NCBI GenBank assembly: GCA_965215265.1
Contig: OZ244048.1
Location: 2,208,001 to 2,272,000 of the forward strand
DNA length: 64,000 nucleotides
Direction: 5' to 3'
DNA from: Candidatus Poribacteria bacterium
GTDB lineage: Bacteria; Poribacteria; WGA-4E; WGA-3G
Within the stretch, counting starts at the first letter, position 1, and every line of letters begins with the position of its first letter. Positions 5,031 through 41,868 of the stretch are shown here, in pieces. The notes beneath the pieces were generated by a model. The model saw only the letters and a list, made by a program, of their open reading frames with translations. It was not told the DNA's origin and searched no databases. The translations under genes were made by a program, and so were the position numbers.

Positions 5031-5137
5031 TGGTGGTGCCCACCCGCCCCAACTCCTCTCTCCTGAAACAGAGACTGGAAAAGGGTTGGTGGGCACCAAC
5101 TGAATTTTTAATGGAATTGGGCGGGTGCCCAATTCCA
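5031..5137. repeat. Palindromic elements between convergent genes (possible bidirectional terminator or REP-like element)
   Basis: TGGTGCCCACC...GGTGGGCACCA inverted repeat (~5033-5098) plus hairpin TGGAATTGGGC-GGGT-GCCCAATTCCA (5112-5137). The core CCCACCCGCC..AACTCCTCTCTCCT recurs at ~16648. Confidence 0.55.
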
Positions 5138-5959
5138 CTTCAGTTTTGCCCAAGTGGTTGTCAACTTACCTGCTGCTTCGACAGCCAGTGCCTTTTCCAT
5201 GTTTGCCTTAACTTCTTCTGCGGTGAGCGCGACACTCCAGATCTTGAATTCATCAATCACCCCGTTGAAGAAGTTTCCATTGCCTTGGTTGGCGGCAATC
5301 GACATGCCTTGTGTGCCGAAATCCATGCGTGCGTCGCCGCCGGATTTTGCTTCGCCATCGACCTCACCGTTGATGTACATCACTGCATTGCTTTTATCCT
5401 GTGTGCCTACGAAGTAGTGCCATTCGGGCTCAAATCCGATTTTATCGGTGAGTGCCTCTAGTTCGGCGCCCTGCGTGGCAAAGTAGAAACCGAATAACAC
5501 ACCGCCGCGATTGAACGTTATATGGGGACGCCCACCACCAGTGAGTCTATAGAGCAAATCTATACGGTTTCCGCCCTCAATCTTATCGTCCGGTTTAAAC
5601 CAGAACTCAATCGTCATTTCCTTGGGTTCATCAATCCCGAACGCATCCACATTCACGCTTCCGTTATTAAAATGAAGTGCTTGGCCTACAACACCTTCCA
5701 CCCAATCCGCGTTCTTGATATCCCCTGTGAAACTGTTAGGGGAAGTATCTTGTGCCTTGTTTCCTTTCCCTTCATCAAACGGAAAATAAATGATTAAATC
5801 TTTCGCTGCATCTGCAGCGTGACCGAGACTTGGGAATAACGCTGCTACTGTGAATAGTAAAACAATAGGACTTAGCACGGATAGCTCTGCTGAAGAACGC
5901 CGAGAGGCATCAATGCTAATGTGCCAGACTCGAAGAATTATAGAAAAAAAAGGTTTCAT
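5108..5959 (-). CDS. Secreted LamG/concanavalin-A-like jelly-roll protein with C-terminal TW(G/A)xLK tail
   Basis: YFPFDEGKG..A.D.S.N, WHYFVGT, YINGE, FNGVIDEFKIWSVALT; ends AVEAAGKLTTTWAKLK. Confidence 0.88.
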   Translation of the reverse strand: MKPFFSIILRVWHISIDASRRSSAELSVLSPIVLLFTVAALFPSLGHAADAAKDLIIYFPFDEGKGNKAQDTSPNSFTGDIKNADWVEGVVGQALHFNNGSVNVDAFGIDEPKEMTIEFWFKPDDKIEGGNRIDLLYRLTGGGRPHITFNRGGVLFGFYFATQGAELEALTDKIGFEPEWHYFVGTQDKSNAVMYINGEVDGEAKSGGDARMDFGTQGMSIAANQGNGNFFNGVIDEFKIWSVALTAEEVKANMEKALAVEAAGKLTTTWAKLKWNWAPAQFH

Positions 5960-6002
5960 TTTATTTTGACGACGGTGTCGTCATTTCCCTCCAGTTTTAG
6001 TG

Positions 6003-6340
6003 TTTTTGTATATCTCTGTTTTTTCGTATATCTCCGTACCATCACGCTTTATGCTTTGTTAATGACAGTGTAAATCTCGTTTTTTTGTATATTTCAGCCC
6101 GATAACGCCTGATGTTATGTTTATTACCGTGTAAATCTCGTCTGAGATTCCTTAGGTTTTGACTTTAAAGACGATACCTAAGCAGGCTCAGACGAGCTTT
6201 ATGCAAAGGTTATCAAAACATCAATCCGTATTGGGCCCCTGTAGACGAAAAAGCGAGATTTGTAAAGGGTTTAACATAGCAGCAGCCTTTATTGGGCTCC
6301 TGTAGACAAAAGACCTTTATGGTACTGCAGTAGACGAAAA
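6003..6340. repeat. Nested palindromic intergenic element (~60-nt unit family), copy 1
   Basis: Left units TTTT(C)GTATAT.TC.G..CC...GTGTAAATCTCG at 6021-6079 and 6083-6140; core CTCGTCTGAG...CTCAGACGAG; inverted units at 6193-6251, 6254-6310 and a partial one at 6314-6340. Confidence 0.8.
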
Positions 6341-6388
6341 TTAGAAATTAAGACTGGCATTAAATTCATTTCATGTCAGCCGTTGTTG

Positions 6389-7264
6389 TTATTCGGGGGT
6401 GCTGTGCCGCTTGAATTTCAGCGCGCCCCACCGTGTAGTTAATTTAGCCGTTGGCTCGACGGATAGTACCTCTGGTACGTGATAATTAAGAATAAATTCC
6501 CCTATAATGTTGCCCCATGAAACGCCTGGGTGGGGGACATCTCCGACGTAGACTTGTACGAAAATTCCGAGCCTGCCGCCGGTTTCCTCGTTAATCAGGA
6601 CAGCCGGTTCTACACGCAAATCTTCGTCTGTGTTTTCAGCAAGCGCGATGTCGAGTTTCCAAGGCGTTTTCGCGTAATCTTCTAGGTGGAAGGGATACGA
6701 GGTATTGTACTTTTTGAGGCTTGGTACATATTTTTCTCCATCTGCTGTGGGTGTCATCTCTACCGGGTCAGCTTGCCAATTATCGCCTCGTCCCTGCCAT
6801 ACGAAGGCGTTGGGGACATCAATTACGTTTTGCAACCCTCTGGCTTCGTTCGTTTCTGCGGGTCCTTCGGATGTATAAAAGGTGTATTCGCCGGTATTAA
6901 AAATCGTATTGCCGGCATCCAGAAACTGCTCTAAAAGCGAACCGTCGGGTTTTGCATTGCCAGGGGGATAAATCGTTGAAGGGGTGATACCAGTTAAAAT
7001 AAGCGTATTGCCACCACCGTCAGTATGCGCTTTGACCCAATTTGCTAACCCTTCTATATCCTTTGGCTCGAAGACCGTGAGGTTTTGCCCTTTAAGTAAC
7101 TGAATAAGAGTGTCCAGTTCCTTTTGTGCCTCTTTTGCATCCTCGCGGGCCCACGGATGGGAATCGGTATGCAGCGCGAAATCAAAACCGGCTTCCGTTA
7201 CAGCAGTGCCCCAAGCGAGTTTTATCGTGGCTACCATAAGAATTATGCTCAATTTTCTAAACAT
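6389..7264 (-). CDS. Secreted hypothetical protein with C-terminal WGxLK tail
   Basis: Signal peptide MFRKLSIILMVATIKLAWG; GGAGG RBS; ends SVEPTAKLTTRWGALK. Body domain not recognised. Confidence 0.8.
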   Translation of the reverse strand: MFRKLSIILMVATIKLAWGTAVTEAGFDFALHTDSHPWAREDAKEAQKELDTLIQLLKGQNLTVFEPKDIEGLANWVKAHTDGGGNTLILTGITPSTIYPPGNAKPDGSLLEQFLDAGNTIFNTGEYTFYTSEGPAETNEARGLQNVIDVPNAFVWQGRGDNWQADPVEMTPTADGEKYVPSLKKYNTSYPFHLEDYAKTPWKLDIALAENTDEDLRVEPAVLINEETGGRLGIFVQVYVGDVPHPGVSWGNIIGEFILNYHVPEVLSVEPTAKLTTRWGALKFKRHSTPE

Positions 7265-7334
7265 TTTGCCTCCGTCTTTAGTCTGAAAGCATTAGGCAGC
7301 AGAATCTTCAGTAATCCCAGCAAACATCAAGGAA

Positions 7335-7795
7335 TCAATTTTTCAGCGAAGCCCACGTTACGGCGAGTTTTTCCACCGGTTCAACTGCAGTAGGTGGGAT
7401 TCCGGGTCCATTAATCTCCACGTATTCATAGAGCACGGTTGAATCTCTACCCCCTAACCCCGGTCTGCCCTTGTCGTACGTTTTATCATCTTGTTCCACC
7501 ATCAGTTTCCCGTCAATGTAGGGGTTCTGAGGGTGAGCCCTTCAGTTTTTCGGGTCCTAACTTCCATGCGATAATCAGTCCAATTGTCTTATCCAAAATA
7601 GATGCCTGAGTTCTGTCCACCTGCGACGGTGAGTTCAAGCATGCCATCTTTAACTTTAACTGTCGCTTGGGGTCCGAGTTCCCAATCAGCAATCTCTCTG
7701 TCACTATCAAATTCGTATCGAATCGCTTGCGCGTTCGGAATGCTCAGAATAAGGCATAGGCAGGCACAAAGCCTTGAGATGTAACGCTTTTTCAT
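7335..7795 (-). pseudogene. Pseudogene of a secreted beta-jelly-roll (DUF1080-like) protein with the TWxxLK tail
   Basis: GGAGG RBS and MKKRY signal peptide; in-frame TAA at 7589-7591 (YFG*DNWTDYRME); after a frame change it continues YIDGKLMVEQDDKTYDKGRPGLGG...AVEPVEKLAVTWASLKN*. Confidence 0.8.
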
Positions 7796-8155
7796 GACAA
7801 ATTCCTCCTTTTTGCAATGGCATAACTGTCTGCCTGTCGAGCTTGCCAAAGACTTTCTGGCAAGAATTTGGGAGAGTTAGCAAAAGTGAGAGTTTTGCGT
7901 TAAATAATGATGCGATGGTGGTTACTCCTAACGCCGCTGCTCTGTATTCAATCAACGGTTTAGTCCCTAAAAGCATAACAAATTTAGGAAACAGTGTCAA
8001 GAAAAAATCAGTCTGTTTTTTTTCTTCACGAACAGAGCCGAAGGGTATCGTCTTATGGAAAATCAATCCCAACTTCAGAAGGGACATCTCCTGGCTAGTG
8101 AGAGTTGTCAACATCGTGACAACGTGCTGGTTTGTTCAATTCATGACTTCAAAAA

Positions 8156-8524
8156 TCATTGACGCAGGGTGGCAATAATTAAACATGTCCATCCGGCGAT
8201 GAACGCTGCACCTCCAAGGGGTGTAATAGCCCCAAGCCAACGAACGCCGGTAAGACTAAGTGTGTAAAGACTGCCCGAAAAGACCAGAATTCCAATGGAA
8301 AAGCACCATCCGGATGCAATGGTAAGTTGGCTGTTCCATTGGGAGTGTGCCCACGCCGTTGCGAGTAATGCAAGGCTGTGGTACATCTGGTAGCGAACAG
8401 CTACCTCAAACGTCTCCAGCATCTCCGCTGGTAGTTTTGACCGGAGTGCGTGCGCGCCAAATGCGCCAAGAACAACAGCGATGAGGCTAAACCCTGATCC
8501 GAGTGCAAATAAAAAGTTTGGCAT
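8156..8524 (-). CDS. DUF423 / YgdD-TMEM256 family membrane protein
   Basis: AVVLGAFGAHAL, AVRYQMYH, GILVFSGSLY and LGAITPLGG motifs. Confidence 0.92.
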   Translation of the reverse strand: MPNFLFALGSGFSLIAVVLGAFGAHALRSKLPAEMLETFEVAVRYQMYHSLALLATAWAHSQWNSQLTIASGWCFSIGILVFSGSLYTLSLTGVRWLGAITPLGGAAFIAGWTCLIIATLRQ

Positions 8525-8579
8525 GGTTTATTTTCTCTTTCTATATGATAATTGTATGTTGGTTGAGATTTATTTAACT

Positions 8580-9155
8580 CTAGTCTTTGTTAAAACAGGT
8601 GGCCTGCTGTTTAAAGTTGACAGGTGTGGTGTCGTTGAGATGCTGAAGTAAAGAGTGAATCGTCTCGCCAAAACGTGGATGCACAACCTGAGGTGCAATT
8701 TCGGCTAACGGTACTAGTACAAAACGGCGGAGGTGCATCTCTGGATGTGGAATGACAAGTTCAGATTCACTGAGAGAGACATCCGCGTAGAGCAAAACAT
8801 CCAAGTCGATTTCTCTGGGCCCCCAACGGATGCGTTGCTGTCTACCGACTTTGATTTCGATATGTTTTAAAATGTGTAGCAAGTGTTGCGGGGTGAGGCG
8901 TGTCTGGATGGCGGCGACCCCGTTCAGAAAGTGGGGCTGCTGTTCATAGCCAATAGGTGCTGTTTCATAGAGGGAGGACACTTTTTTCAAGTTAACTCCG
9001 TCAACTTCCGCGATGCATCGGATGGCGTTATCAATATACTCCATCCGGTTGCCGATATTGCTGCCGAATCCGATATATGCTGGGCACATAAAAGTATTGC
9101 CCCCGGATGTGCGTGCGCTAAAGTCAGTTACGTGCAATGGAGCTGCGCGTTTCAA
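8580..9155 (-). CDS. folK: 2-amino-4-hydroxy-6-hydroxymethyldihydropteridine diphosphokinase (true start may be 9089)
   Basis: [45 protein letters not shown]. Confidence 0.95.
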
Positions 9156-10384
9156 AATTTTCGGATGGCAATAGAGGTATTATGTCCTCCGAATCCGAAA
9201 GCGTTGGAGAGTGCGACCTTAACGTTTGCGTCGCGGCTCTGATTGGGGACGTAATCCAGGTCGCATGCGTCATCGGGGATTTCGTAGTTGATAGTGGGCG
9301 GTATATAGCCTTTCTGCATCGCGCCTAAGCAGGCAATGAGTTCGACTGCGCCTGCTGCGCCAAGGAGATGCCCGACCATGGATTTTGTGGAGCTGATCGG
9401 AATTTTGTATGCGCGGTTGCCAAACAACGTTTTAATGGCATTGGTTTCGGCGATGTCTCCAATAGGTGTTGATGTGCCATGCGCGTTGATGTAATCGACA
9501 TCATCTACGGAGAGCTGCGCGTCCTTTAGCGCGAATTCCATGGCTTTCGCTGCGCCTTCCCCGTTTTGGGGCGGGCTTACCATATCGTGTGCATCGGAAG
9601 TCATACCAAAGCCTAGGAGTTCGGCGTAAATAGACGCGCTGCGTCTTTGTGCATGCGTGAGAGATTCAAGAATGAGGATACCTGCACCATCGCCCATCAC
9701 GAATCCATCCCGGTCTTTGTTAAACGGCCGCGATGCGCGTTCAGGTTCATGGTTTCGTGCAGACATTGCACGCATTGAGCAAAATCCAGCGAAAGCGAGC
9801 GGTGTAATTGCAGATTCGGCTCCGCCCGTAAACATGACATCCACATCCCCACGCTGAATTAGACGAAACGATTCCCCAATAGAATGATTGGCTGTTGCAC
9901 AAGCGGTAACGGAGGATGAGTTTGGGCCCTTGAGGTTAAAATGGATAGAAATCTGCCCTGCTGCCATATTAATAATCATATATGGTACCAGAAAAGGACT
10001 GACGCGTTTGGGGCCCTTCTCTACCAAGGTTTGTGCATTTTCCTCAAGGATGCCAATGCCTCCGACACCGGAGCCGATTTGGACACCGGCCCGGTAGGGT
10101 TGGACTTTATTAAGGTCCAAACCGGAATCTTGGTGCGCCATTATTGCTGCCGCGAGAGCATATTGAATAAAAAGTGGTAACCGTGATGCGGCTTTCTTAT
10201 CAAGATAAGTTTCTGGTTGGAAGTCCTTAACTTCTCCGGCGATTTGGGTACGGTAATCGGTAGCATCGAAATAAGTTAAAGGTCCGATTCCGTTTTTACC
10301 GATTGCAAGCGCATCCCAATATTCGTCTTTGGTGTTGCCAATCGCGTTGACAACACCGATTCCAGTAATAACTACACGCTCCAC
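9152..10384 (-). CDS. fabF: Beta-ketoacyl-ACP synthase II
   Basis: [43 protein letters not shown]. Confidence 0.97.
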
Positions 10385-10465
10385 GAGCCTGATCCTTTTT
10401 TGAGTGTGTATCAGTAGACGCTGTGTCTGTGTGTGCGCGTCTACCTGCAGTTGTTTGTGCTATGC

Positions 10466-10699
10466 CTAGACATGTTCGTCCAAGTAGTTGAGTGCATCTT
10501 GGACAGTCTGAATTTTTTCGGCATCGCTGTCAGGGATTTCAAGGTCGAATTCCTCTTCGAGTGCCATAACGAGTTCTACGGTATCCAGTGAATCTGCGCC
10601 CAGGTCTTCCATGAAGGAAGCGTCTGGGGTGACATTCTCCGCGTCAACTCCAAGTTGGTTCGCGATAATTTCAATAAGCCGTTCTTGATTTTCTGGCAT
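10466..10699 (-). CDS. acpP: Acyl carrier protein
   Basis: [20 protein letters not shown]. Confidence 0.98.
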
Positions 10700-10787
10700 A
10701 ATAGTTTAACTGAGCTCCTCTTTTAGTGTGATGAAGTGCCTACACTGTGGAAAGCGTGAAGGCACGGGTGTTAATAAATCATGTAGG

Positions 10788-11525
10788 TTACATCACCATT
10801 CCACCGTCAACCTGTAGGGTTTGCCCGGTGATATAGCGTGCGGCATCGGATGCCAAAAAGCAGACAGCGTCTGCTACATCTTCGGGGCTGCCAAATTCGC
10901 GTAACGGAATCAACTCAAGCAGTTGCTTCTGATTCTGTTCGGGGATTTGTGCTGTCATGTCAGTTTTTATAAAGCCGGGTGCGATAGCGTTAACGGTGAT
11001 GCCGCGCGTTCCGACTTCTTTCGCGGTTGCTTTGGTGAACCCAATGATGCCGGCCTTCGCAGCTGCGTAATTGGCTTGTCCGGCGTTTCCTGTTATTCCA
11101 ACCACGGACGAAATGTTGATAATGCGCCCGCCTCGCCGACGTATCATCGGCCTCAGTACGGCGCGTGTACAATACATTGTACCTGTCAGATTTGTCTGCA
11201 AAACGGCATCCCACTGTTCATCTTTCAAACGCATGAGAAGCGTATCGCGGGTAATGCCTGCGTTATTAACGAGAATATCGATCGCTGAAAACCGGGCAAG
11301 CGTCTCTTGAATCAGCGTTTCTACATCCGCTTTTTGTGAGATGTCGGCTCTAATAGAAATGGCATTGTGGCCTTCGCTATTTAAGGTATCAGCGATTTCG
11401 GTGATTGCCGTCTCTGAACGTGAGCAGAGGACAACGTTTGCCCCGGCTTCACAAAGTTTGCGCGCAATCGCTGCGCCAATTCCTCGCGAGGCACCTGTGA
11501 CAATGGCTATTTTTTCTTTAAGCAT
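10788..11525 (-). CDS. fabG: 3-oxoacyl-ACP reductase
   Basis: TGASRGIG, NNAGITRD, GQANYAAAKAG; located in the fab operon. Confidence 0.96.
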   Translation of the reverse strand: MLKEKIAIVTGASRGIGAAIARKLCEAGANVVLCSRSETAITEIADTLNSEGHNAISIRADISQKADVETLIQETLARFSAIDILVNNAGITRDTLLMRLKDEQWDAVLQTNLTGTMYCTRAVLRPMIRRRGGRIINISSVVGITGNAGQANYAAAKAGIIGFTKATAKEVGTRGITVNAIAPGFIKTDMTAQIPEQNQKQLLELIPLREFGSPEDVADAVCFLASDAARYITGQTLQVDGGMVM

Positions 11526-11594
11526 TTTCGATAATTGTTTTTAGAGTTCTACATTTTTGCCTGAATATTTGGAGACATCTGCGTCAGGATTTGT

Positions 11595-12524: not shown

Positions 12525-12531
12525 GTTCGGA

Positions 12532-13614: not shown

Positions 13615-13792
13615 TCACGTTAGATTTTAGTACGGGTCTGCCGTTGTAAGAGCCACACCCCGGACAGACCCGGTGAGATATCATCATCTCCCCGCAAGAT
13701 AAACAAACGTTTATAGTTTTTTGACGGAGAGCGTGATGGCTTCTCCGCATTCTTTTTTTCGATTTTGACGTTCTCCGTTTGGGATGCGCCAT
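13607..13792 (-). CDS. rpmF: 50S ribosomal protein L32 (Zn-ribbon type)
   Basis: [19 protein letters not shown], CxxC and [10 protein letters not shown]. Confidence 0.97.
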
Positions 13793-13949
13793 AGTGATTA
13801 TCTCCTGCTGAAAGTTAGAAATTCGTTAAACTTCCGGGTAAGGGCGGCCTGGGCTGACTCAACGATATCCGCCCGTTTTTGTAAATTCGTTCAGTGAGGC
13901 AATTAGGTCATGAATTTCCTTTGGCAATGCCCTAGTTAGGTTGCGCTTC

Positions 13950-14600: not shown

Positions 14601-14629
14601 GCTTGCATTCCAGTGGGGGTTTGCTGCTT

Positions 14630-30557: not shown

Positions 30558-31346
30558 ATGAAATACGTTTCTATGATCGTGTTAGTTTTGTTAATTAATT
30601 TGTGTGGCATTTCCTATGCGGACTTAATGGAAGGCTTGGTTTTGTACATGCCGCTTGATGAAGGTACAGGAACCGCAACACATGATATGTCTGCGAACGG
30701 CTTTGAAGGCGAAGTGGTAGGTGCCGCAGCATGGATTGACGGAAAATTTGGGAAAGCCCTTCACTTTGCTGCCTCAGCAGATCACGTCGTGGTTGAGGAT
30801 GATGCCGCGTTTCATATTGAGGGCGAGATTACACAAGCGGCGTGGGTACAATTAGACCGGCTCCCGAGCGCGCATGCGATTATCTTTGGCACCCGGCAGA
30901 GCGGTGCAACTCGCCATATCGGTTTCGGCTTCGGTATGAATCCTGCCAACGGCATCAAAGTCTGGACAAACGGCGCAGCTGGCGGGTTTAAGGACATCAA
31001 CGATAATGAAACCGAACTCGAACTCGGCAAGTGGTATTATCTCGCTTATACACATACCGATGATAACAACGGATTGGTTGAGATTTACGTTGATGGCGAG
31101 GTGACGTACTCAGAAGAATCAGCGAACCCTGTGGCTCCCGCTGAAAATACCAGCGCGGTGACTATTGGGACCTGGGGCGGTGAGGCCTGGACAGGCAGCG
31201 TCGACGAGGTGCGCCTTTGGAACCGGGCACTCTCAGCAGAGGAGATTAAAGAGAGCATGAACCAAGACGCATCAGCATTCTTGACCCCTGTGGAACCCCA
31301 AGGAAAACTCACTACGACTTGGGCTGGTATTAAGTCCTTCCGGTAG
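30558..31346 (+). CDS. Secreted LamG domain protein with TW(A/G)xxK tail
   Basis: LVLYMPLDEGTG, GKFGKAL, WYYLAYT, GSVDEVRLWNRALS; ends PVEPQGKLTTTWAGIK. Confidence 0.9.
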   Translation: MKYVSMIVLVLLINLCGISYADLMEGLVLYMPLDEGTGTATHDMSANGFEGEVVGAAAWIDGKFGKALHFAASADHVVVEDDAAFHIEGEITQAAWVQLDRLPSAHAIIFGTRQSGATRHIGFGFGMNPANGIKVWTNGAAGGFKDINDNETELELGKWYYLAYTHTDDNNGLVEIYVDGEVTYSEESANPVAPAENTSAVTIGTWGGEAWTGSVDEVRLWNRALSAEEIKESMNQDASAFLTPVEPQGKLTTTWAGIKSFR

Positions 31347-31483: not shown

Positions 31484-32266
31484 ATGAGAAAAATGTTATT
31501 CTGCTTAACCCTCAGTATCGTCCTCGGATTTGCTACTGTTGTAGACGCAATTCGGGATGACCCGGACCTGGTCGTTTACTACTCCTTTGATAAAGATGAA
31601 AAGGACGTCGCGGATGACAGCGGAAACGGGTTTGATGCCGAAATTTCAGCCGCAGATTGGAGCAAGGAAGGTAAGTTTGGCGGTGCTATGGAATTTGATG
31701 GCGCATCGAGTTCTGTTAAAAGCCCGCCAGAGATGCCCGGACTCACCGATGGAGAATTAACGGCGATGACCGTGGAGCATTGGGTGATGATTAACGCGAG
31801 TACCGGAGACACGCAGCAAATTTGGGAAGCGTTAAATGCCGCAGGTGCTTGGCCCGCCGAGACTTTCATCGAAGGGGCCGCTGACATGGTGTTTTACATT
31901 TATGACACCAAAAATACCGAACATCGCACCGCTATACCAGAACCACCGCTCAAAAAGTGGGTACACATTGCAGGCACTTATGATGGAAAAGTTCAGAAGT
32001 CCTATGTCAACGGAAAAGTGGTGGATGAACTAGCGTGGAGCGGGAAATTCGTTATCATCCCGGCCCCAAGCGGGGCTATTGTCCTCGGCAAGGACAACGA
32101 GGCGGATATCCAACACCTCAACGGATTTATCGATGAATTTGCTTTCTACACCCGCGCCTTGACAGAGGCTGAAATCAACGCAGACATGAATAAAGGCGTC
32201 TTGTTTGCGGTTGAACCGACAGACAAACTCAGTACCACTTGGGCCGGTATCAAAGCCGCATACTAA
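31484..32266 (+). CDS. Secreted LamG domain protein with TW(A/G)xxK tail
   Basis: LVVYYSFD, GKFGGAMEFDG, WVHIAGTYDG, G.IDEF..Y.RAL; ends AVEPTDKLSTTWAGIK. Confidence 0.9.
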   Translation: MRKMLFCLTLSIVLGFATVVDAIRDDPDLVVYYSFDKDEKDVADDSGNGFDAEISAADWSKEGKFGGAMEFDGASSSVKSPPEMPGLTDGELTAMTVEHWVMINASTGDTQQIWEALNAAGAWPAETFIEGAADMVFYIYDTKNTEHRTAIPEPPLKKWVHIAGTYDGKVQKSYVNGKVVDELAWSGKFVIIPAPSGAIVLGKDNEADIQHLNGFIDEFAFYTRALTEAEINADMNKGVLFAVEPTDKLSTTWAGIKAAY

Positions 32267-32273
32267 CCCTTAA

Positions 32274-32296: not shown

Positions 32297-32324
32297 ACGC
32301 ACGCACAACAAAGGAATCACAACT

Positions 32325-35211
32325 ATGGCACGACACCCGAAACCGAATCCTGTAGAAACCGACTCCTACACGCACGAGAACGAAACCCGAACCAGTATCC
32401 CACCGGTAGGCCTCGCACCGGACGGAGATATCGCCGAAACGCAAAAGAGAGAATACTACTATAACCCACATCTCCAACCTATACTCCGCTTTGATGCCAA
32501 AGATACCCGTTTACCCCCCCCCTAAAAATTTGTTAAGTATTGCACAAAAACGAACGTTAACTGCCGCCGAAGCACAACAACTCGCTGACGCGCTTGACGC
32601 AAAACCGTGGCTGGAATGGGCAAATAAACGCGAAGAAGGCGACTCCTTCACCGTGGACCCAATTTCACTCTTCATCCACGAACGACTCAGTGCACAAGCC
32701 ATCCTTGAGACCGCAAAACGGAACGACATCCAACGCGACCTCTTCGCCGACCCGCAGCAAAAGTACCGAGACGCAGTCCAATTCTACGCGCATGAGGTGC
32801 CGTGGGCGAATCGCCTTATCCTCGGCGATAGCCTACAAGTGATGGACTCACTCGCACATCGCGAAGCGTTGGCTGGCCAGGTCCAGATGATTTATGTAGA
32901 TCCGCCCTATGGGATTAATTTCCGATCCAACTTCCAACCGGAGGTGTTTCAGAAAAGTGTCACAGATAGGGATAAGGATCTGACGCGCGAAGTAGAACAG
33001 GTTAAGGCGTATCGCGATACGTGGAAACTCGGGATCCACTCCTACCTCTCCTATCTCAGGCAACGGTTTGTCGTTGCACGCGAACTGCTCAAGGATTCAG
33101 GCAGCATCTTTGTGCAGATTGGTATCGATAATGTCCATCGAGTTCGCTGTCTACTTGATGAAGTGTTCAAACCGGAAAATTTCGTGTGTGAAATCGTTTT
33201 CAAAACACGAAATGCATCTACAAGTAAGCATTTATCCGTCTTGAACGATTTTATCCTTTGGTATACAAAAGAACGGAAGTGTGTGAAGTTCCACCGTTTG
33301 TTTCAGGAAAAAGAAGCAGATTCTAATTTTCCGAAAGGGGAGTTACCAAACGGTGACATGGTATCTGCTTTTTCTAGTGGAAACCCAATTGAGAATATGC
33401 CTGTCAAGGCGAGACTTTTCAAAAACAGTGACTTAACTTCCCGCGGAAGTTCAGGAGGTCATCAACCGTTTAAATTTCAGAATGAAAACTATAATCACCG
33501 AAGCGGAGGTAGTTGGCGAACCAGTATTGAAGGATTATCACGTCTTGCAAAAGCTGACAGACTCATTTCTAGTGATGCAACTGTGAGCTACAAGCATTAC
33601 TTTTCTGACTTTCCCTACAGTGAACTAAGGAATTTTTGGAGTGAACAACTTTTTGAGCAACGCAGAACTTATATTGTGCAAACGTCACGAAAAGTTATAG
33701 AGAGATGTATGTTGATGAGTACAGACCCCGGGGATTTGGTTCTGGATCCGACGTGTGGCAGCGGTACCACCGCTTATGTTGCCGAGCAGTGGGGGAGACG
33801 TTGGATCGCAATTGATACGTCTCGAGTTGCGATTACACTCGCGCGCACTCGTCTCTTGACAGCAACTTTTGACTACTATCAATTGAAAAATGAATCAGAG
33901 GGGGTCGGGAGCGGGTTTGTGCTGGAGACGGCACCGCGTATTCAGTTAAGAGACATTGCGAACAACGTCGCGCTGGACCTCATCTTTGAAAAACATGAAC
34001 CGATATTGGCAGAGAAGTTGGCAATCCTGAACGCTGCCCTGAAGGAGGTTACACCGGCACTGCGTAAAGAACTCAGACTGAAGTTGGCGGAGAAAAAGAA
34101 GCGTGATGTGACGGATGCGGATCGGCGGCGGTGGGATTTGCCAGAAACGGCTTGGGAAGAGTGGGAGGTGCCGTTTGACACCGATGCGGCATGGCCGGCG
34201 GCTTTACAAGAGGCGTTGGTTGCATATCGAGGGGCGTGGCGGGCAAAGATGGACGAGGTGAATACGTGCATCGCTGAATCTGCGAAACAGGAGGTGCTGG
34301 TCGATCGGCCTCTTGTTGATAAAAGCCGCATGCGGGTGAGCGGTCCGTTTACCGTTGAATCGGTGCATCCAGCGGCGGAATCGTTGGATGGGGAAGCAGG
34401 AGAAGCAGATTCTGAATTAGACGTGGAACCGGCGAACGCCGCGGCGTATCTGGAACAGATGTATGCACTGCTGAAAACAGGTGGCGTTGACTTTGAAAAT
34501 GAGAAGAAGGATTTTGCGCGGTTAGACCTGCTCCAAGGCGGCTCCCTCCACGCCGAGGGACAGTTCGAAGATGATGAACGCGACATCTGCGTTGCGTTTG
34601 GACCGCAACACGGACCGGTAACTGCTTTGCAGGTGGAGCACTGCTTGACGGAAGCCAGAAAGTATTACGATGTGCTGCTGTTTGCAGGTTTCAACTTTGA
34701 GGCCGAAGCGCTCGCCATCCTTCAAGGCGAACACCGAAAGCTACAGACCCACTTCGTGCAAATCGCCCCAGATGTTACGATGGGAGATCTGCTCAAGCAG
34801 ATGCAGAGTGATAAACTCTTCACTGTTATCGGTGCACCGCGAACGGTAGTCGAACAGACGGATGACGGAGAATGGCTTGTGAAGATGGAAGGGCTGGATA
34901 CGTACAATCCGGTGGATAACACCATAGAACCGACACAAGCGGATCAGGTTGCGGCGTGGCTTCTAGACACCGATTACGACGGACGTACCTTCTGCCCGAC
35001 GCAGTCCTTTTTTCCGAATAAGAATGCGTGGAAGAACATCGCGCGTTCGCTAAAAACAGTGATTGATGCGGAGAACTTGGAGGCGTTTTCGGGAACGGAG
35101 TCGATTCCGTTTTCAGCCGGTAAGCATAACCGGATTGCGGTGATAGTGATAGATCGGCGTGGGAATGAATTGATGCGTGTCCACAAATTAGAGGAACAGC
35201 AGCATGAATAA
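32325..35211 (+). CDS. mod: Type III R-M DNA methyltransferase (Mod), frameshifted at a C9 tract (ORFs 32325-32525 and 32491-35211)
   Basis: NRLILGDSL, IYVDPPYG and DPTCGSGTT in beta-class order. The upstream ORF encodes a plausible Mod N-terminus (Y.H...R..IP.VG, YNPHL.P.LRF). Deleting one C fuses the two ORFs. Confidence 0.88.
32514..32522 (+). repeat. Poly-C9 simple sequence tract in the mod 5' region
   Basis: TTA CCC CCC CCC TAA; with C8 it reads TTA CCC CCC CCT AAA AAT TTG, in frame with the long ORF. Confidence 0.85.
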
Positions 35212-38011
35212 AAAATACGAACAACAGCGGATGCCGATTCAGCCGGTAGAAGAACCGATTCTGTGCTCGCCATATATGGAGCCGACGGAACATTGGGTTT
35301 ACGATAAAGAGACTGGCAGGCCGAGCAGACAGCCGGGTCGTCGTAGCGCCGGTTATTGGATAGAAGAGTATGGAACGGCAGAAGAACAGTTGGAATTGAG
35401 TTTTGTGCGTGAAGAAGACTGGAGTACGCTGCGGCTGGTCAACGCCTTGCGTAACGATGTGAAACGCTGGCGTGCGACAGACTATCGGAATGCTATGCCC
35501 GTTACGCGTCAGCTTCTGCGTTATTGGCAGCGTGAAGGCAGGCAGCGTCCGCTCTTTTTCTGTCAATTGGAGGCCGTTGAGACGGTCATCTACCTCGCGG
35601 AGATCCGCAAGCCTGGGCACCGTCTCGGTTTTAAACCGGAATTTGAGGATAAAGATTTGGATACACTGCACGATGCGGATTTAATCCGTTACGGGTGTAA
35701 AATGGCGACGGGGAGTGGGAAGACCGTTGTGATGGCGATGCTAATCGCGTGGGCGTTCTGCAACCGGGGTAAGGTGCGTTCCGACACGCGGTTCCCGTCC
35801 GCAGTGCTGGCGGTATGTCCCAACCTGACGATTAGAGACCGGCTTGAGGTTCTCCGTCCGGAGGATCCGGAGAATTACTACGATAAATTTGACTTGGTGC
35901 CGCCGACGCTCCAAGCATTTCTCAGAAAAGGGAAGGTCAAAATTACCAACTGGCACCAGCTCACGTTGGAATCGGAACATGCAGAGGGTGGGGATTCGCA
36001 CCGCGTTGTAAACAAAGGGGAGGAGACGGCAGAAGCTTATGCGGAGCGTATCCTCGGCGAGCTCGGGGGGCGGGGTGAAATTATGGTGCTTAACGACGAA
36101 GGGCATCACGCTTATCGTCCTTTAGCATCAGAGACGAAACTCAACAAGGAAGAGAAGGCGGAGCAGCAGACTGCGACGGTGTGGATCCAGGGGCTGGATC
36201 GGATTCAGCAGGCGTGTGGCATTCGGTTTGTGGTAGACCTGTCGGCGACACCGTTCTACTTGCACGGCAGCGGGCATCCGGAAGGCAAGCCGTTTGAGTG
36301 GCTCGTGAGCGATTTCGGTCTGGGGGATGCAATAGAGAGCGGCATCACCAAAATCCCGCGAATTCCGATCAGCGATAGCACCGGACGGCCAGAACCGAAA
36401 TATTTTCGCTTATGGGAGCATATCACTGCTCGACTGGGCAAGCGTCCTAAACCGGAAGATATCTATACCGAGGCGAACGATGCGCTGATAACGCTCGCGA
36501 GTCAATGGAAAGCGCAGTTCGATGAGAACGGATCACAGATACCGAACTGCATGATCGTCGTCTGTCCGGAGACGAAGGTTGCCGAAGTATTTCATCGCGG
36601 TATCTCGGGAGAGAGGTTAAGCGACGGTGAAATTGTTTATGACTCGAGTGACCTTTTTGAAGAACTCCGGAACAGTGACGGGGATACGAAAACGTTCCGC
36701 ATTGATAGTAAGAAGCTCGCTGAGGAAGGCAGTGATGCGGAGGCTCTGCGGGATGTCGTTAGTACGATAGGGAAAGAGGGTAAGCCGGGTGAACAGATTC
36801 GGTGCGTCGTCTCTGTCTCAATGCTCACTGAAGGTTGGGATGCGAACAACGTGACGCAAATTCTGGGGTTGCGTGCGTTTAAGAGTCAGCTGCTGTGTGA
36901 GCAGGTTGTGGGCCGTGGGCTGCGCCGCATGAGTTACGATATCAATCCGGAAACAGGGCTTCTTCCGGCGGAATACGTGGACATTTACGGCATCCCGTTT
37001 TCGCTGATTCCGTTCAAGGGGCGGCAGCAAGGGAAGCCGCAGCCGGATAAACCGACTTATCGCGTGCGTGCATTACCGCAGCTGCGCGAGCATGAAATTC
37101 GGTTCCCTAACGTTGACGGGTATATCTTTGACTTGCACCATGCTTCGATTACGGCAGACATTGCGGAGAGGGATCTCCTGAAATTGGACTCTGATCATAC
37201 GCCGGATGCGGTTTTCGCGGGTGGCATCAGTTTGAACGAAGGCAAGCATGTCTATATCGGGGAGCACATTGAGCATAACCGGCAGAAGTTTTATGACGCG
37301 AATCACTTTCAAACCATTAAATTCGACATCGTTAAGCAAATCTTGGATCAGTTACCGATAGAGCGGTGGGAAGAGAAACCGGTGTTATCTCGTCGGCAGC
37401 TCTTTCCAGAGATTTATCGGCTTGTGGATGCCTATACGCAGAAGATCCACTTTGGCTATATGGATGTGCGCGAATTGGGAAACGTGAAATACAGGAAGCA
37501 TGTAATTGAGCTCTTTCTCAACGCGATTCGACCGAGCGAAAATGCCGATGGAGCCGAGTTGGTTCCTATTATCAATCCGAGCAAGCGTTGGGGTAGCTCA
37601 GCGGACGTTGATTTCAGTACCACCAAAGACTGCTATCGGACGCAGAAAAGCCACGTCAACTTCGTAGCTGTGGATAGTACGTGGGAGGCGAGCGCAGCGT
37701 TCCGGCTGGAACGTTCTGCCCATGTGAAAAGTTACGTACGGAATGATGGGCTCTGGTTCACTATCCCGTATCACTTCGAGGGTGCTTCACGCGACTATGT
37801 TCCGGATTTTATCGTTGTTATGTCAAATGGACTCAAAGTGGTGCTTGAGATTAAAGGGCAAGAAACGCCGAAAGATCTGGCGAAGTACCAAGCAGCAAAA
37901 CGGTGGGTGGCTGCTATTAATCACACACAAAAATTTGGCAAATGGGGTTTTCTAGTCTGCCGGAGTCCATCCACGTTAGAGGTCGAGTTGGAGTCGTTGA
38001 TGGCTCGTTAA
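35204..38011 (+). CDS. res: Type III restriction endonuclease Res subunit (SF2 helicase plus PD-(D/E)XK nuclease)
   Basis: KMATGSGKT, NDEGHH, SATP, MLTEGWD, EQVVGRGLRR, YVPDF...LEIKG; overlaps the mod stop. Confidence 0.92.
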   Translation: MNKKYEQQRMPIQPVEEPILCSPYMEPTEHWVYDKETGRPSRQPGRRSAGYWIEEYGTAEEQLELSFVREEDWSTLRLVNALRNDVKRWRATDYRNAMPVTRQLLRYWQREGRQRPLFFCQLEAVETVIYLAEIRKPGHRLGFKPEFEDKDLDTLHDADLIRYGCKMATGSGKTVVMAMLIAWAFCNRGKVRSDTRFPSAVLAVCPNLTIRDRLEVLRPEDPENYYDKFDLVPPTLQAFLRKGKVKITNWHQLTLESEHAEGGDSHRVVNKGEETAEAYAERILGELGGRGEIMVLNDEGHHAYRPLASETKLNKEEKAEQQTATVWIQGLDRIQQACGIRFVVDLSATPFYLHGSGHPEGKPFEWLVSDFGLGDAIESGITKIPRIPISDSTGRPEPKYFRLWEHITARLGKRPKPEDIYTEANDALITLASQWKAQFDENGSQIPNCMIVVCPETKVAEVFHRGISGERLSDGEIVYDSSDLFEELRNSDGDTKTFRIDSKKLAEEGSDAEALRDVVSTIGKEGKPGEQIRCVVSVSMLTEGWDANNVTQILGLRAFKSQLLCEQVVGRGLRRMSYDINPETGLLPAEYVDIYGIPFSLIPFKGRQQGKPQPDKPTYRVRALPQLREHEIRFPNVDGYIFDLHHASITADIAERDLLKLDSDHTPDAVFAGGISLNEGKHVYIGEHIEHNRQKFYDANHFQTIKFDIVKQILDQLPIERWEEKPVLSRRQLFPEIYRLVDAYTQKIHFGYMDVRELGNVKYRKHVIELFLNAIRPSENADGAELVPIINPSKRWGSSADVDFSTTKDCYRTQKSHVNFVAVDSTWEASAAFRLERSAHVKSYVRNDGLWFTIPYHFEGASRDYVPDFIVVMSNGLKVVLEIKGQETPKDLAKYQAAKRWVAAINHTQKFGKWGFLVCRSPSTLEVELESLMAR

Positions 38012-38108
38012 CAAGGTACGATAATAGCGCCGGGGTAATAAAAAAAAACGGTGACAATTCTTTAGGTTTTTGGTATGATGGAACGATACAATTATCTAAG
38101 GGACGCAG

Positions 38109-39173
38109 ATGTCATTGAAGGAACAAGAGTGGATAGAAAGCGAGGCGCAATTAGAGTCCCGTCTCTCTGAACCGACCCCGGAGGTTATTGAGGCGGTAGG
38201 TGCGCTTGAGGGCGATCTTCTGATTCTGGGTGTTGGCGGGAAGATGGGTCCGACGCTTGCCAAACAGGCAAAACGCGCTATAGATGCAGCAGGTGTCTCC
38301 AAAAAGGTGATAGGTGTGTCGAGATTTTCGGTACCGGGGGTACAGGAAATGTTGGATGCGTCTGGGATTGAGACGATAGCGGCAGACCTGCTAACTGAAG
38401 ACAGTCTGCAAAACCTACCTGATGTCCAGAACGTGATTTTCATGGCTGGGCGCAAGTTCGGTGCAATGGGCAATGAGCCGTTGACGTGGGCAATCAATAC
38501 CTACCTGCCGGGTCGCGTCTGTGAGAAGTTCCATTCTTCGCGATTGGTTGTTTTTTCTACAGGGAACGTTTATCCGCTAACTCCTGTCAGTTATGGTGGC
38601 GCGACAGAGCGTTATCCAGTGGAAGCGATAGGCGAATACGCGCAATCGTGTCTTGGGCGCGAACGGGTATTTGAATACTTTTCAGCCGAGTTCGGCACCC
38701 GGATGGCGATTCTCCGTTTGAACTACGCCGTTGAGCTGCGTTACGGCATCCTGCTGGACATCGCAGAGCAAGTGTATGCGGAATCTCCAATCCTCCTGAC
38801 GATGGGGAACGTGAACGTCATCTGGCAAGGCGATGCGACAGCGGTTGCGTTGCGGGTTTTTGCACACTGTCAAAGCCCGCCACTGATTCTGAACGTGACG
38901 GGCCCAGAAACCGTTTCTATCCGTTCACTTGCACAACGTTTTCGTGCATTTTGGGCATCAGCAGCAAGTAAACCGACAAACAAGGAGCTCTGCTTCGCTG
39001 GAGAAGAGTCAACAACTGCGCTGCTCAGTAACGCCTCGCAGTGTCATCAACTCTTCGGATATCCCGGTGTCTGCTTAGAGCAGATAGTGCGGTGGGTGGC
39101 CCACTGGGTTCAGATAGGCGGGCCAAGGCTCAACAAACCGACAAGGTTTGAAGTTCGCGATGGGAAATTTTGA
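38109..39173 (+). CDS. NAD-dependent epimerase/dehydratase
   Basis: ILGVGGKMG, STGNVY, EYAQSCLGRER, LRLNYA. Confidence 0.88.
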   Translation: MSLKEQEWIESEAQLESRLSEPTPEVIEAVGALEGDLLILGVGGKMGPTLAKQAKRAIDAAGVSKKVIGVSRFSVPGVQEMLDASGIETIAADLLTEDSLQNLPDVQNVIFMAGRKFGAMGNEPLTWAINTYLPGRVCEKFHSSRLVVFSTGNVYPLTPVSYGGATERYPVEAIGEYAQSCLGRERVFEYFSAEFGTRMAILRLNYAVELRYGILLDIAEQVYAESPILLTMGNVNVIWQGDATAVALRVFAHCQSPPLILNVTGPETVSIRSLAQRFRAFWASAASKPTNKELCFAGEESTTALLSNASQCHQLFGYPGVCLEQIVRWVAHWVQIGGPRLNKPTRFEVRDGKF

Positions 39174-39307
39174 AAGGTTACGCTATCTACTTAATTTGTG
39201 ATTGGTTTTCGGGAAAACTTACCAAAACATCTCTTTTGATTTAGGAATAGAAAACGGGCCGTAACCCGGAAAAAACCCACGATTTTTATTAAAAAAAAAA
39301 GAGAATT

Positions 39308-40291
39308 ATGTTAAGATATTACTGGGTTTGCCCTATATTTTTATGGATATTTCTTTTCGCTATTGGGTTCGGGGTTTTGTTCCTAATGCATGATAGTTTA
39401 GGTGAGCCTGTTCCGCGTTTCAAAATAGCATTTGCCTCGGATGTGAGTGGGGACTGGGAGATCTATCTGACAGATACGGTGGGCAGCCCCCCGGTGAACC
39501 TAACAGTCAATCCAGCGGCGGATTATTATCCGTCGTGGTCTCCGGATGGTACGCAGATGGCGTTCTTTTCGCGGCGTGATGCGAATCATGAAATTTACGT
39601 GATGCGTGCTGATGGAACAAGCCAGAGACGGTTAACACATCATCCTGCGACGGATAAAGCCCCAGCGTGGGCCCCGGACGGTGAGCATCTGGCGTTCATC
39701 TCCAATCGTCAGGGCCATTTCGATATCTATTTGTTACATCTCCGGAGTGGTAGATTAGAACCGCTAACCGCGAATCTGTTTGAAGACGAGGTGCCTTCGT
39801 GGTCTCCGGACAGTGAAAAACTGGTTTTCCACTCTAAGCGTGGCCTGAATTGGGATATCTATGTGATAGATATTAACAGCCGCGTGGAACAACGCCTGAC
39901 ACATCAACGACTGATGGATATTTATCCGGCGTGGTCCCCGGATGGCACGCAGATTGTATATGCCTCCATGCGGGGAGAGGGGGAGCTCGCCGATTTGGAT
40001 CTCTGGACGATGGATATTGATGGACAGAACCGTAAAGCCATTACGGATACGCCAACAGATGAAGCCGTTCCGGCGTGGTCTCCGGATGGTACGCAGATAA
40101 CTTTTCAATTTGAGAAAGGGGGCAGATGGGTTGTCCATATCATGAACGCAGATGGCACCCAACGCCAAGAATTGATTAACAACGGTGCGTGGGCAGCACA
40201 GCCGAAATGGCAATCTAGTTCCGAGACACTGCCAGCGGAGCCGCGCGATTTACAAATTCAACAACCGTGGGGTAAAATGAAAGTCCCATAA
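39308..40291 (+). CDS. TolB-like / PD40-repeat beta-propeller protein with a degenerate WGxxK tail
   Basis: Five P.W(S/A)PD(G/S) repeats plus a degenerate sixth; ends PAEPRDLQIQQPWGKMKVP. Confidence 0.88.
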   Translation: MLRYYWVCPIFLWIFLFAIGFGVLFLMHDSLGEPVPRFKIAFASDVSGDWEIYLTDTVGSPPVNLTVNPAADYYPSWSPDGTQMAFFSRRDANHEIYVMRADGTSQRRLTHHPATDKAPAWAPDGEHLAFISNRQGHFDIYLLHLRSGRLEPLTANLFEDEVPSWSPDSEKLVFHSKRGLNWDIYVIDINSRVEQRLTHQRLMDIYPAWSPDGTQIVYASMRGEGELADLDLWTMDIDGQNRKAITDTPTDEAVPAWSPDGTQITFQFEKGGRWVVHIMNADGTQRQELINNGAWAAQPKWQSSSETLPAEPRDLQIQQPWGKMKVP

Positions 40292-40357
40292 GGTGGCTAT
40301 TGCTTTTCGCACACAGTGCCACAATTTTTTTTATAAAAAGATAAAGGAGATGTTCCT

Positions 40358-41005
40358 ATGCATTACAAAGTTTTAAGTCTAAGTATCTTGTTCGTAGTCG
40401 GTTTACTGCTGACAATCGGTATCAGTTACGGCTATGATCGGGCGATTGAAGCAGAAATGGCAGAGCAGATTGAAGCCCCAATGATAGTCGCTGACGATGC
40501 TTCTGCATCTGGTGGCAAGTTTATCTGGATGGAAGGTCCACCTGCGACGGGTGGTGGCGGTGAAGGTTGGGCGGAATATAAAATAGATCTGCCCGCTGGT
40601 ACCTATGCCTTGTGGGGTAAAGTCATCGCGCAAGATGGCAATAGTGATTCGTTTTGGGTAACGTGGCAGCCGGCAGATCCGGACGAAGATGCGCAAGTGA
40701 CACAGAATACTGAGTTTCGCTGGGGAGTCATGACAGGTGCCGAGTGGCATTGGGACCGCATCAATCACTGGTTAGATGGTGGCACTTTTGAACGCGAATG
40801 GGAGATGCCGGGCGGTGAGACCACGCTCCGTATCGCTGTGCGCGAAGATGCTACGATGTTAGATGTCATTTTCATCACCGATAATCTCTCTGAAGATGAA
40901 GCAGAAGTGAACCCACGCGATCCGGGGCCGGAAGATTTGCTTACGCCGGTTGAACCGCAAGATAAACTCGCCACAACATGGGGGAAACTCAAACACGTAC
41001 AATAG
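40358..41005 (+). CDS. Secreted CBM-like beta-sandwich protein with TWGxLK tail
   Basis: IEAE, D..ASGG, Y.LW, NSDSFWV, RED...LD; ends PVEPQDKLATTWGKLK. Confidence 0.8.
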   Translation: MHYKVLSLSILFVVGLLLTIGISYGYDRAIEAEMAEQIEAPMIVADDASASGGKFIWMEGPPATGGGGEGWAEYKIDLPAGTYALWGKVIAQDGNSDSFWVTWQPADPDEDAQVTQNTEFRWGVMTGAEWHWDRINHWLDGGTFEREWEMPGGETTLRIAVREDATMLDVIFITDNLSEDEAEVNPRDPGPEDLLTPVEPQDKLATTWGKLKHVQ

Positions 41006-41193
41006 GCGTGTTTTTTTGGGCACGATTCACATAGCTCGCATATATGCTTCCAAATTTCGCTTCTACGTCAGTCAGAAGGTCTCACAAAAATACGTAGGCG
41101 TGCTGGAGTGTTTATGAAAAAGATTAGCATAAGCATACAAAAAGCACGCCTATCCTCAAACATTTCTTAATTTCATGAGAAAGGAGTTGCATA

Positions 41194-41868
41194 ATGAAAC
41201 ACCGGATAATTTCTTTTCTGTTTATCTTGTCCTTATGTATCAGCATACAGACAGGAGTTGGAGCCGAGGTTGAGATGGCTCTTGAGGCAGAATTAGCACA
41301 AACGATTGAAGAACCTATGATTGTTGCTGATGACAAGTTGGCATCGGATGGCAAATTTATCTGGATGGAAGGTCCACCTGCGACGGGTGGTGGCGGTCAG
41401 GGCTATGCGGAATTTATCATCAACATTCCCGAACCGGGGGAATACGCGCTCTGGGGCCATGTCATTGCTTGGGATGGAAACAGCGATTCGTTTTGGGTGA
41501 CCTGGCAGCCGGCAGATCCGGACGAAGATGCGCAAGTGACGCAGAATACTGAGTTTCGCTGGGGAGTCATGGCAGGTGCCGAGTGGCATTGGGACCGCAT
41601 CAATCATTGGTTAGATGGTGGCACTTTTGACCGGGAATGGGAATTCGCCAAAGCTGGGGAAACAGTCTTACGCATCGGTGTGCGGGAAGATGCGACGATG
41701 TTAGACGCGATATTCGTTACATCAAACGTCAAAGCCACGGCTGCGGAACAAGCGAATGCACGTCTTCCGACAGACAAAGATCGGAAGATACAGATTGAGG
41801 GGCTTGCTGTGGATGCAGAAGGCAAAGCTGCAACCACCTGGGGCTCTCTAAAGAAAGCATATCGGTGA
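41194..41868 (+). CDS. Secreted CBM-like protein, tandem paralog of 40358-41005
   Basis: Near-identical core to the preceding gene; ends AVDAEGKAATTWGSLK. Confidence 0.8.
   Translation: MKHRIISFLFILSLCISIQTGVGAEVEMALEAELAQTIEEPMIVADDKLASDGKFIWMEGPPATGGGGQGYAEFIINIPEPGEYALWGHVIAWDGNSDSFWVTWQPADPDEDAQVTQNTEFRWGVMAGAEWHWDRINHWLDGGTFDREWEFAKAGETVLRIGVREDATMLDAIFVTSNVKATAAEQANARLPTDKDRKIQIEGLAVDAEGKAATTWGSLKKAYR

Follow-up and report, generated by a model that had tools for sequence, protein, structure and literature searches.

Short C-terminal sorting signals such as LPXTG, PEP-CTERM and the C-terminal domain (CTD) of type IX secretion systems (T9SS) have each led to a dedicated envelope machine. 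Here we describe a conserved C-terminal tail that is carried by otherwise unrelated secreted proteins of Candidatus Poribacteria and that was noticed in a window of 64,000 nucleotides (the whole stretch of DNA analysed; assembly GCA_965215265.1, contig OZ244048.1, positions 2,208,001 to 2,272,000). The window lies in a single contig of 4.83 Mb, and the genome is 95% complete. Genome-wide, the consensus of the tail is L-[AP]-V-[ED]-P-x-[GD]-K-L-[ATS]-T-T-W-[GA]-x-[LIV]-K, i.e. ~17 constrained residues within a peptide of ~20 residues.

The closest described counterpart is the type A CTD of the T9SS (TIGR04183 / PF18962), which, like the tail, is found at the C-terminus of Sec-exported proteins of many folds that often bind glycans or are adhesive. 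Both also have a conserved basic residue close to their end; in the tail this is an invariant lysine, the only feature that recalls motif E. The T9SS CTD, however, is a folded Ig-like beta-sandwich of 60-100 residues, whereas the tail comprises ~20 residues, 17 of them constrained, is predicted to be unstructured and lacks motifs B and D (GxY); the preliminary description of the window had already called it far shorter than a T9SS CTD, and this holds. A comparison of 97 tails with 36 of the genome's own CTDs by hhalign gave no profile similarity (P = 0.44), and by-eye likenesses such as G-K-L-A were not significant. An origin of the tail as a CTD remnant was rejected on these grounds.

PEP-CTERM/exosortase, LPXTG/sortase and GlyGly-CTERM/rhombosortase likewise rely on short C-terminal tags carried by dozens of unrelated exported proteins. 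With its Pro/Glu-containing [AP]-V-E-P, its short segment and its basic end the tail is similar to PEP-CTERM, but P-E-P is not identical, and the membrane-spanning helix of PEP-CTERM is absent from all 95 tail genes analysed for it, in which the motif is followed by only ~10 residues of near-zero mean hydrophobicity. Exosortase (PF09721) gave 0 matches in the single-contig genome, with the control detected in M. jannaschii, and was therefore rejected as a reader of the tail. An LPXTG-type motif and a membrane helix are absent from the tail sequences, a sortase gene not having been searched for. Dockerins, known from the dockerin-cohesin pairs of cellulosomes, are Ca-binding duplicated domains of about 60-70 residues. 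Both they and the tail are linker-tethered portable C-terminal modules that could join many carbohydrate-active modules to a common partner; the tail differs in being a 20-residue peptide, and the tagged proteins here are binding modules, not enzymes. No dockerin family was found by Pfam in seven window proteins, 31 representatives of the tail-protein clusters described below and 37 isolated tails. As an analogy only, the peroxisomal PTS1/PEX5 system also uses a short unstructured C-terminal peptide on folded unrelated cargo. PTS1 is a tripeptide at the very end of proteins of another compartment and another domain of life, and in the tail, by contrast, the last residues are the variable ones.

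No known model describes the tail. The 37 isolated tails matched no NCBIfam family at E <= 10 and gave one chance match in Pfam (Ets, E = 0.076); in seven whole window proteins the NCBIfam sorting-signal families (GlyGly-CTERM, MYXO-CTERM, IPTL-CTERM and others) were without a match at E <= 0.1, and only cargo domains were detected. Searching PDB sequences with the tail profile returned chance-level matches (E >= 0.37), and among the papers listed on Poribacteria C-terminal sorting, LamG, type IX secretion or 'TTWG' none was found to describe the tail.

The tail is strictly C-terminal. A loose regular expression matched 75 times in 91,407 six-frame segments, and 73 of the 75 matches ended at most 11 residues from a stop codon. 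A hidden Markov model (HMM) built from these tails detected 108 open reading frames (ORFs) at 15 bits or more with matches ending at most 12 residues from the stop; several short tail remnants were also seen. Internal copies, for which a check had been proposed at the outset, were not found anywhere in the genome; the best internal HMM match reached only 1.2 bits. With about 4190 genes in the genome, the 108 ORFs correspond to about 2.5% of genes, a proteome share typical of sorting signals. W and the last K are present in 108/108 tails, and V(-10), K(-5) and L(-4) in 100, 102 and 95, respectively; the E/D of [AP]-V-[ED]-P is found in 82 and its P in 73 of the 108. Only two of the 17 positions, -7 and +2, vary freely. 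After the final K follow 1-4 residues in 91/108 tails, rich in R, Q, S and K. Since the conserved positions use every synonymous codon (e.g. all six of Leu and all four of Val, Thr, Pro and Gly), selection acts on the peptide and not on a DNA or RNA repeat. Even one family whose members share as little as 31% identity retains a recognisable tail throughout.

The proteins that carry the tail are unrelated to each other. After removal of the tails, the 108 proteins fell into 35 BLAST clusters, the largest being LamG with 50 members and the other 58 proteins being spread over 34 clusters. Pfam searches with 31 cluster representatives revealed Laminin_G_3, 3keto-disac_hyd (DUF1080), CBM9, CBM4_9, F5/8 type C, Kelch, PD40, HmuY and GH43_C2 domains, as well as weak zincin-type matches and RhaB_D2/PA14-like ones, while 11/31 had no Pfam match; the CBM6 type is represented, too, by a window protein assigned from its structure model. 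Cargo sizes range from 198 to 434 aa, and nearly all are single non-catalytic modules. Four LamG paralogues (genome coordinates 798047-798889, 1971696-1972598, 1974325-1974663 and 1976854-1977696) have no tail. Their sequences break off inside its first half or shortly before it and share an alternative ending; one is 93% identical to a tail-bearing gene.

Export-type N-termini are nearly universal among the tagged proteins. Among tail genes encoding 150 aa or more, 93/95 had a hydrophobic 9-mer (Kyte-Doolittle >= 2.0) within the first 70 residues, a heuristic criterion for signal peptides, compared with 775/1920 size-matched other genes. Beyond residue 70, a membrane-helix-like 19-mer was found in 0/95 tail genes and in 238/1920 controls. 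The N-termini that were inspected resemble ordinary Sec signals. Thus, of what the preliminary description had proposed, the unrelated cargo folds (different Pfam folds in 35 clusters), the signal-like N-terminal segments and the absence of a transmembrane helix from the tail all stand, and so does the lack of a matching domain or sorting-signal model in Pfam, NCBIfam and PDB. Its term 'surface glycan-binding proteins' proved too narrow, because it leaves out the ThuA-like alpha/beta fold, the zincin-like peptidase, HmuY and the beta-propellers found among the cargo.

The tail is spread over the whole phylum. A 30-base pattern back-translated from it was matched in 174/176 genomes (132/133 of the good-quality ones), typically 20-90 times per genome, and the same DNA pattern read backwards as a control gave 0 matches in 176/176 genomes. 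The two pattern-negative genomes were considered as natural tail-loss controls and rejected, since the HMM found 74 and 77 variant tails in them, with e.g. R or S replacing T; hence there is no tail-less Poribacteria genome that could serve for profiling. For the scan outside the phylum a collection with one genome per GTDB species was used, and all counts refer to the matches listed. Of these 80 loci, 72 are titled Candidatus or uncultured Poribacteria. Five of the other eight, from two metagenome-assembled genomes, carry true tails (four of the five were checked), and one of the two assemblies appears identical to a phylum member. The remaining three, titled as other taxa, are short chance ORFs and were discarded. 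Among the matches listed the tag was thus confirmed in no genome outside Poribacteria, in agreement with the lineage-specific nature that had been suggested for it. In IMG/VR contigs, which are classed as viral, six of 24 pattern matches are true C-terminal tails on signal-peptide proteins; four of the six were analysed with Pfam and contain LamG (two proteins), a lamin-tail domain and an esterase.

To the extent that structure models can tell, the tail does not belong to the fold of its cargo. Two of the Pfam-negative window proteins were modelled with AlphaFold. The protein encoded at 40358-41005 (mean pLDDT 74) matched CBM6 in Foldseek with E 2e-6, and the one at 6389-7264 (mean pLDDT 81) matched a ThuA-like protein with E 1e-5 and a TM-score of about 0.4-0.5; the family of the latter has 84 database matches, all from Poribacteria and without a Pfam match. 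In both models the cargo is well folded and the tail (residues 197-215 and 271-291, respectively) has a pLDDT below 50, and in the CBM6-like protein it follows a Pro/Asp/Glu-rich linker. This argues that the tail is not a strand of the cargo fold, a reading named at the outset as one that would speak against a portable signal. The sequence of the tail has a regular pattern. In the core K-L-x-T-T-W-G-x-I-K the hydrophobic moment at 160 degrees is 0.575, compared with 0.305 after shuffling (z = 20), and there is no excess at 100 degrees (z = -0.8); the mean hydrophobicity of the 10-residue core is about 0, and a P-x-G turn precedes it. Constraint at nearly every position, the turn and the amphipathicity of beta period together fit a strand or hairpin, either enclosed by a partner or joined to one. 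We infer that insertion into a groove or addition to a sheet is the likeliest binding mode; an amphipathic membrane helix fits less well.

Machinery resembling the T9SS is encoded in the same genome. A SprA/Sov-like protein of 2207 aa (genome 1907488-1914111) matches TIGR04189 with 137 bits (E 3e-40), below the cut-off of 200; it is present in 174/176 Poribacteria genomes and single-copy in most. In addition, we found about 15 PorV/PorQ-family barrels, six of them over the cut-off, three PorU-like C25 proteins of 1.7-2.1 kaa (371-377 bits, below the cut-off of 420) and a PF19572 PorV orthologue (genome 1186410-1187528), which shows 77-85% identity between close Poribacteria. GldL and GldM had no match in the genome, and the controls gave no match either. 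At E <= 1e-80, a strict threshold that may hide diverged orthologues, the PorV orthologue was detected in 157/176 genomes and in 0/11 of the three most distant families, in which tails occur in 5/5 genomes examined. In the part of Kamke et al. (2014; PMC3909097) that concerns these systems, TIGR04183-type C-terminal domains are described for Poribacteria and the structural Por-system genes are stated not to have been found. Contrary to that report, the phylum-wide SprA-like protein together with the PorU-like proteins and the PF19572 PorV suggests from sequence similarity that Poribacteria have a divergent T9SS-like system as a core trait. About 38 proteins of the genome have classical T9SS-type CTD endings, so that this machinery is already accounted for without the tails. 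The PorV orthologue (residues 21-370), modelled in complex with the C-terminal 44 residues of the CBM6-like protein in a run without controls, gave a score of 0.01 (mark 0.32), which speaks neither for nor against binding.

Several of the CTD proteins are organised in a particular way. Four of them each lie beside their own PorV/PorQ barrel (window 43919-51876 (-); genome 1934329-1941627, 2842282-2849665 and 3043393-3045971), three being giants of 2070-2300 aa and one having 492 aa. By analogy to PorU-PorV and PorZ-PorQ this arrangement suggests that such barrels may be the cognate anchors of their CTD partners. Accordingly placed, the PorV-like barrel of the window (43919-44911) belongs with the neighbouring giant CTD protein, and no link between it and the tails was found. 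Near-identical T9SS-type CTD endings were also seen in six scattered ORFs of 202 aa (1261000-1261608, 1561537-1562145, 1692326-1692934, 1792372-1792980, 3733663-3734271 and 4140134-4140742), which may represent several copies of one gene or belong to a repeated element.

Regarding genomic context, 99 tail genes were mapped on crude gene calls; 55 are singletons, and the others form 15 pairs, three triplets and one group of five. Propeller cassettes of the FG-GAP/ASPIC-UnbV (CRTAC1-like) type, often with a TPR protein, lie directly beside tail genes at 453202-457041, 673707-678503, 3963204-3967179 and four more loci. The sole secretin of the genome (993 aa, six Secretin_N domains) closes a complete operon similar to a type II secretion system (T2SS; genome 4397196-4416802 (-)) with GspE, GspF, pseudopilins, a GspK-like and a PilM-like protein, and three tail genes follow. 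In 19 other genomes from six families, a tail gene was present within 5 kb downstream of the secretin orthologue in three (a triple array in two, a single gene in one). Since the adjacency is not conserved, a link between the T2SS and the tails was rejected.

Within the window itself, the density of tails is high, with eight compared with 1.4 expected per 64 kb (Table 1). All eight ORFs reported to end in the tail could be translated at their positions, and in six of them the tail is clean, matching [AP]-V-[ED]-[PA]-x-x-K-[LA]-x-T-[TR]-W-[GA]-x-[LI]-K with 2-9 residues after it; of the other two, one is the remnant of a pseudogene and one, the PD40 protein, is degenerate. In a PD40 paralogue elsewhere in the genome the tail is recognisable. 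Between the two pieces of the broken gene lie stops and a frame change. Its designation as a DUF1080-like pseudogene is plausible although weakly established: the last ~60 aa of the remnant share 33-41% identity (E 1e-5 to 3e-6) with the C-terminal parts of one tail-protein cluster, which includes a DUF1080 (3keto-disac_hyd) member according to Pfam of the cluster representative, but the N-terminal piece of 135 aa has no Pfam match.

Table 1. Tail-bearing genes and the barrel/CTD pair of the 64-kb window (window coordinates)
Feature	Position	Strand	Remarks
LamG protein	5108..5959	-	Signal peptide, LamG (PF13385) and tail; tail coded at ~5111-5185; 9 residues after final K
ThuA-like protein	6389..7264	-	Signal peptide, ThuA-like / class-I glutamine-amidotransferase-like alpha/beta fold (predicted) and tail coded at ~6392-6463; 8 extra residues
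Broken gene	7335..8114	-	Tail-bearing remnant of 55 aa at 7335-7502; N-terminal piece with signal peptide in ORF 7707-8114
LamG protein	30558..31346	+	Signal peptide, LamG and clean tail
LamG protein	31484..32266	+	Signal peptide, LamG and clean tail
PD40 / TolB-like beta-propeller	39308..40291	+	Degenerate tail A-E-P ... W-G-K-M-K, below HMM threshold
CBM6/CBM35-like beta-sandwich	40358..41005	+	Signal peptide, domain, Pro/Asp/Glu-rich linker and clean tail
CBM6/35-like paralogue of the 40358..41005 protein (64% identity)	41194..41868	+	Clean tail
PorV/PorQ-family outer-membrane barrel	43919..44911	-	NF033709, 116.8 bits (cut-off 90); paired with giant protein upstream
2300-aa Ig-repeat protein	44974..51876	-	Ends in classical T9SS-type (FlgD_ig-like) C-terminal domain

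Other genes of the window include a bacterial alpha-2-macroglobulin (A2M, bMG10) and, downstream of and overlapping with it, a PBP1C-type penicillin-binding protein at 1-4999 (+), which correspond to the known A2M-PbpC pairing. Between the LamG pair and the PD40/CBM genes, at 32491-38011 (+), a DNA methylase (N6_N4_Mtase, 906 aa) and a ResIII helicase-type protein (935 aa) are encoded with an overlap of 8 bases; this pair looks like a type III-like restriction-modification pair. Near the window end (57658-62218), three large ABC-2-type permease genes (476-521 aa) are located on both strands.

Taken together, we consider it reasonably probable that the tail is a sorting or docking tag, i.e. a portable, putative recognition peptide that is read after Sec export. 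In such a scheme Poribacteria would attach the tail to small, Sec-exported proteins with a wide range of unrelated folds, usually with a short, flexible stretch as linker. The tagged proteins would cross the inner membrane by Sec, the cargo would fold and the tail would stay free, until it is read by one conserved envelope component. That component would then either pass the protein on to a place on or beyond the outer membrane, or dock it with a fixed partner. A single reader may thus exist at some site in the envelope, and the tail may be kept or cut off afterwards. More tentatively, as a possibility to which we give a rather small chance, the tail could be the address label of a new type of phylum-wide outer-envelope sorting or docking pathway, with either the divergent SprA-like/PorV apparatus or an entirely new receptor as reader. 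A 20-residue unstructured peptide, without membrane anchor or folded signal domain, would then suffice to direct folded proteins of the periplasm to a place on or beyond the outer membrane.

Several observations weigh against a sorting or docking tag. The preliminary description proposed that the tail directs export, anchoring or docking; neither the CTD profile comparison nor the exosortase search, the neighbour enrichment or the T2SS adjacency yielded a reader for such a role. Within +/-3 genes of the tail genes, no gene family recurs consistently. The best neighbour enrichment was obtained for FG-GAP/ASPIC-UnbV proteins, 7/16 of which have a tail gene at a distance of up to three genes (p = 6e-4, uncorrected, with about 15 families tested), and TPR proteins were weakly enriched (7/25); as a clue to the reader both were dropped, since the enrichment is weak and points to none. 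Furthermore, the cargo consists almost wholly of small non-catalytic modules, and the large secreted enzymes expected for a general secretion signal are missing. Finally, in the two families compared, tail identity among orthologues was no higher than that of the cargo (0.78 vs 0.71 and 0.56 vs 0.57), so that within families the tail is not conspicuously slower-evolving.

The machinery described above raises the question whether the divergent T9SS-like apparatus, with a SprA-like translocon, a PorV shuttle and PorU-like C25 peptidases, could use the tail as a minimal linear signal in place of the folded CTD. We regard this as unlikely, although all three protein types are encoded in the same genome, the cargo types (LamG, CBM, HmuY, propellers, zincin) are typical of T9SS substrates and two of the cargo domain types also occur in seven CTD-bearing proteins of this genome. 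The sections on HBP35 in PMC11285876 place its targeting signal in the last 22 CTD residues, with a conserved Lys in the last strand and tolerance of a C-terminal extension, and PMC11969387 reports for Prevotella CTDs of reduced length in which motif E has an invariant basic residue, which leaves some room for a short T9SS signal; the invariant Lys of the tail lies 1-4 residues from the end. On the other hand, PMC11285876 also calls the beta-sandwich architecture of the CTD essential, while tails and CTDs of our genome lack profile similarity and the tail lacks motifs B and D. Moreover, about 38 proteins keep full classical CTDs, hence the T9SS-like system has not given up the folded signal. 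The SprA-like and PorU-like proteins stay below the NCBIfam cut-offs, GldL and GldM were without a match in a search whose controls were uninformative, and by the strict threshold the PorV orthologue is missing from the three most distant families, which do carry tails.

Other explanations do without an address. That the tail is a processing or turnover tag, by which a periplasmic C-terminal protease would cut it off or degrade the whole protein and so govern maturation or lifetime, appears quite improbable: C-terminal recognition by Prc/CtpA-type proteases is established biology, the tail is predicted to be free at the extreme C-terminus in both models, and tail-less or truncated variants occur naturally (the four LamG paralogues and the short remnants), but degrons and pro-peptides rarely keep 15/17 positions constrained phylum-wide on about 100 unrelated proteins, and in the tail it is the final residues, those used by PDZ-type readers, that vary. 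Low probability is also given to a small clustering module, comparable to a foldon-like beta-hairpin, that makes lectin-like modules multivalent. The cargo, mostly low-affinity binding modules, would gain avidity, and judged by sequence the P-x-G turn and the Trp-containing strand could form a hairpin; yet about 100 proteins with one tag in one compartment would give mixed oligomers, the monomer models assign no structure to the tail, and we know of no portable oligomerisation tag at such a scale. Similarly small is the chance that the tail acts as an interfacial Trp/Lys anchor, binding lipopolysaccharide or a membrane lipid itself and needing no protein receptor. The invariant Trp flanked by near-invariant lysines resembles interfacial anchors, and C-terminal amphipathic anchors exist in PBP5 and MinD; against this, the core is not amphipathic at the helical period and has no net hydrophobicity, and a generic membrane anchor would not fix V-E-P, T-T and G. 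Hardly credible, finally, is the view that the tail is not an element of its own but either was inherited as the end of a single expanded LamG family or forms a strand within the cargo folds. While 50/108 tail ORFs do belong to one LamG cluster, this view is contradicted by the fold diversity of the other 58 ORFs in 34 clusters, including beta-propellers, HmuY, zincin-like proteins, CBM6/9/4 and the ThuA-like fold, and the tail is disordered and linker-tethered in the models.

A sorting or docking tag of this kind would concern about one in forty genes of a dominant, uncultivated phylum of sponge symbionts. What is new here, besides the tail itself, are a SprA-like protein found throughout the phylum, the lack of profile similarity between tails and CTDs, the lack of an exosortase and the amphipathicity of the tail at beta period. 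As the DNA pattern gave 0 control matches in 176 genomes, the tail is a specific marker by which the tagged proteome of any Poribacteria genome can be listed. This set consists largely of lectin-like modules, which may mediate contact with host or dietary glycans. Once found, the reader would define how Poribacteria build their surface or periplasmic glycan-binding repertoire, and it could reveal a sorting or docking mechanism that operates with a linear peptide only.

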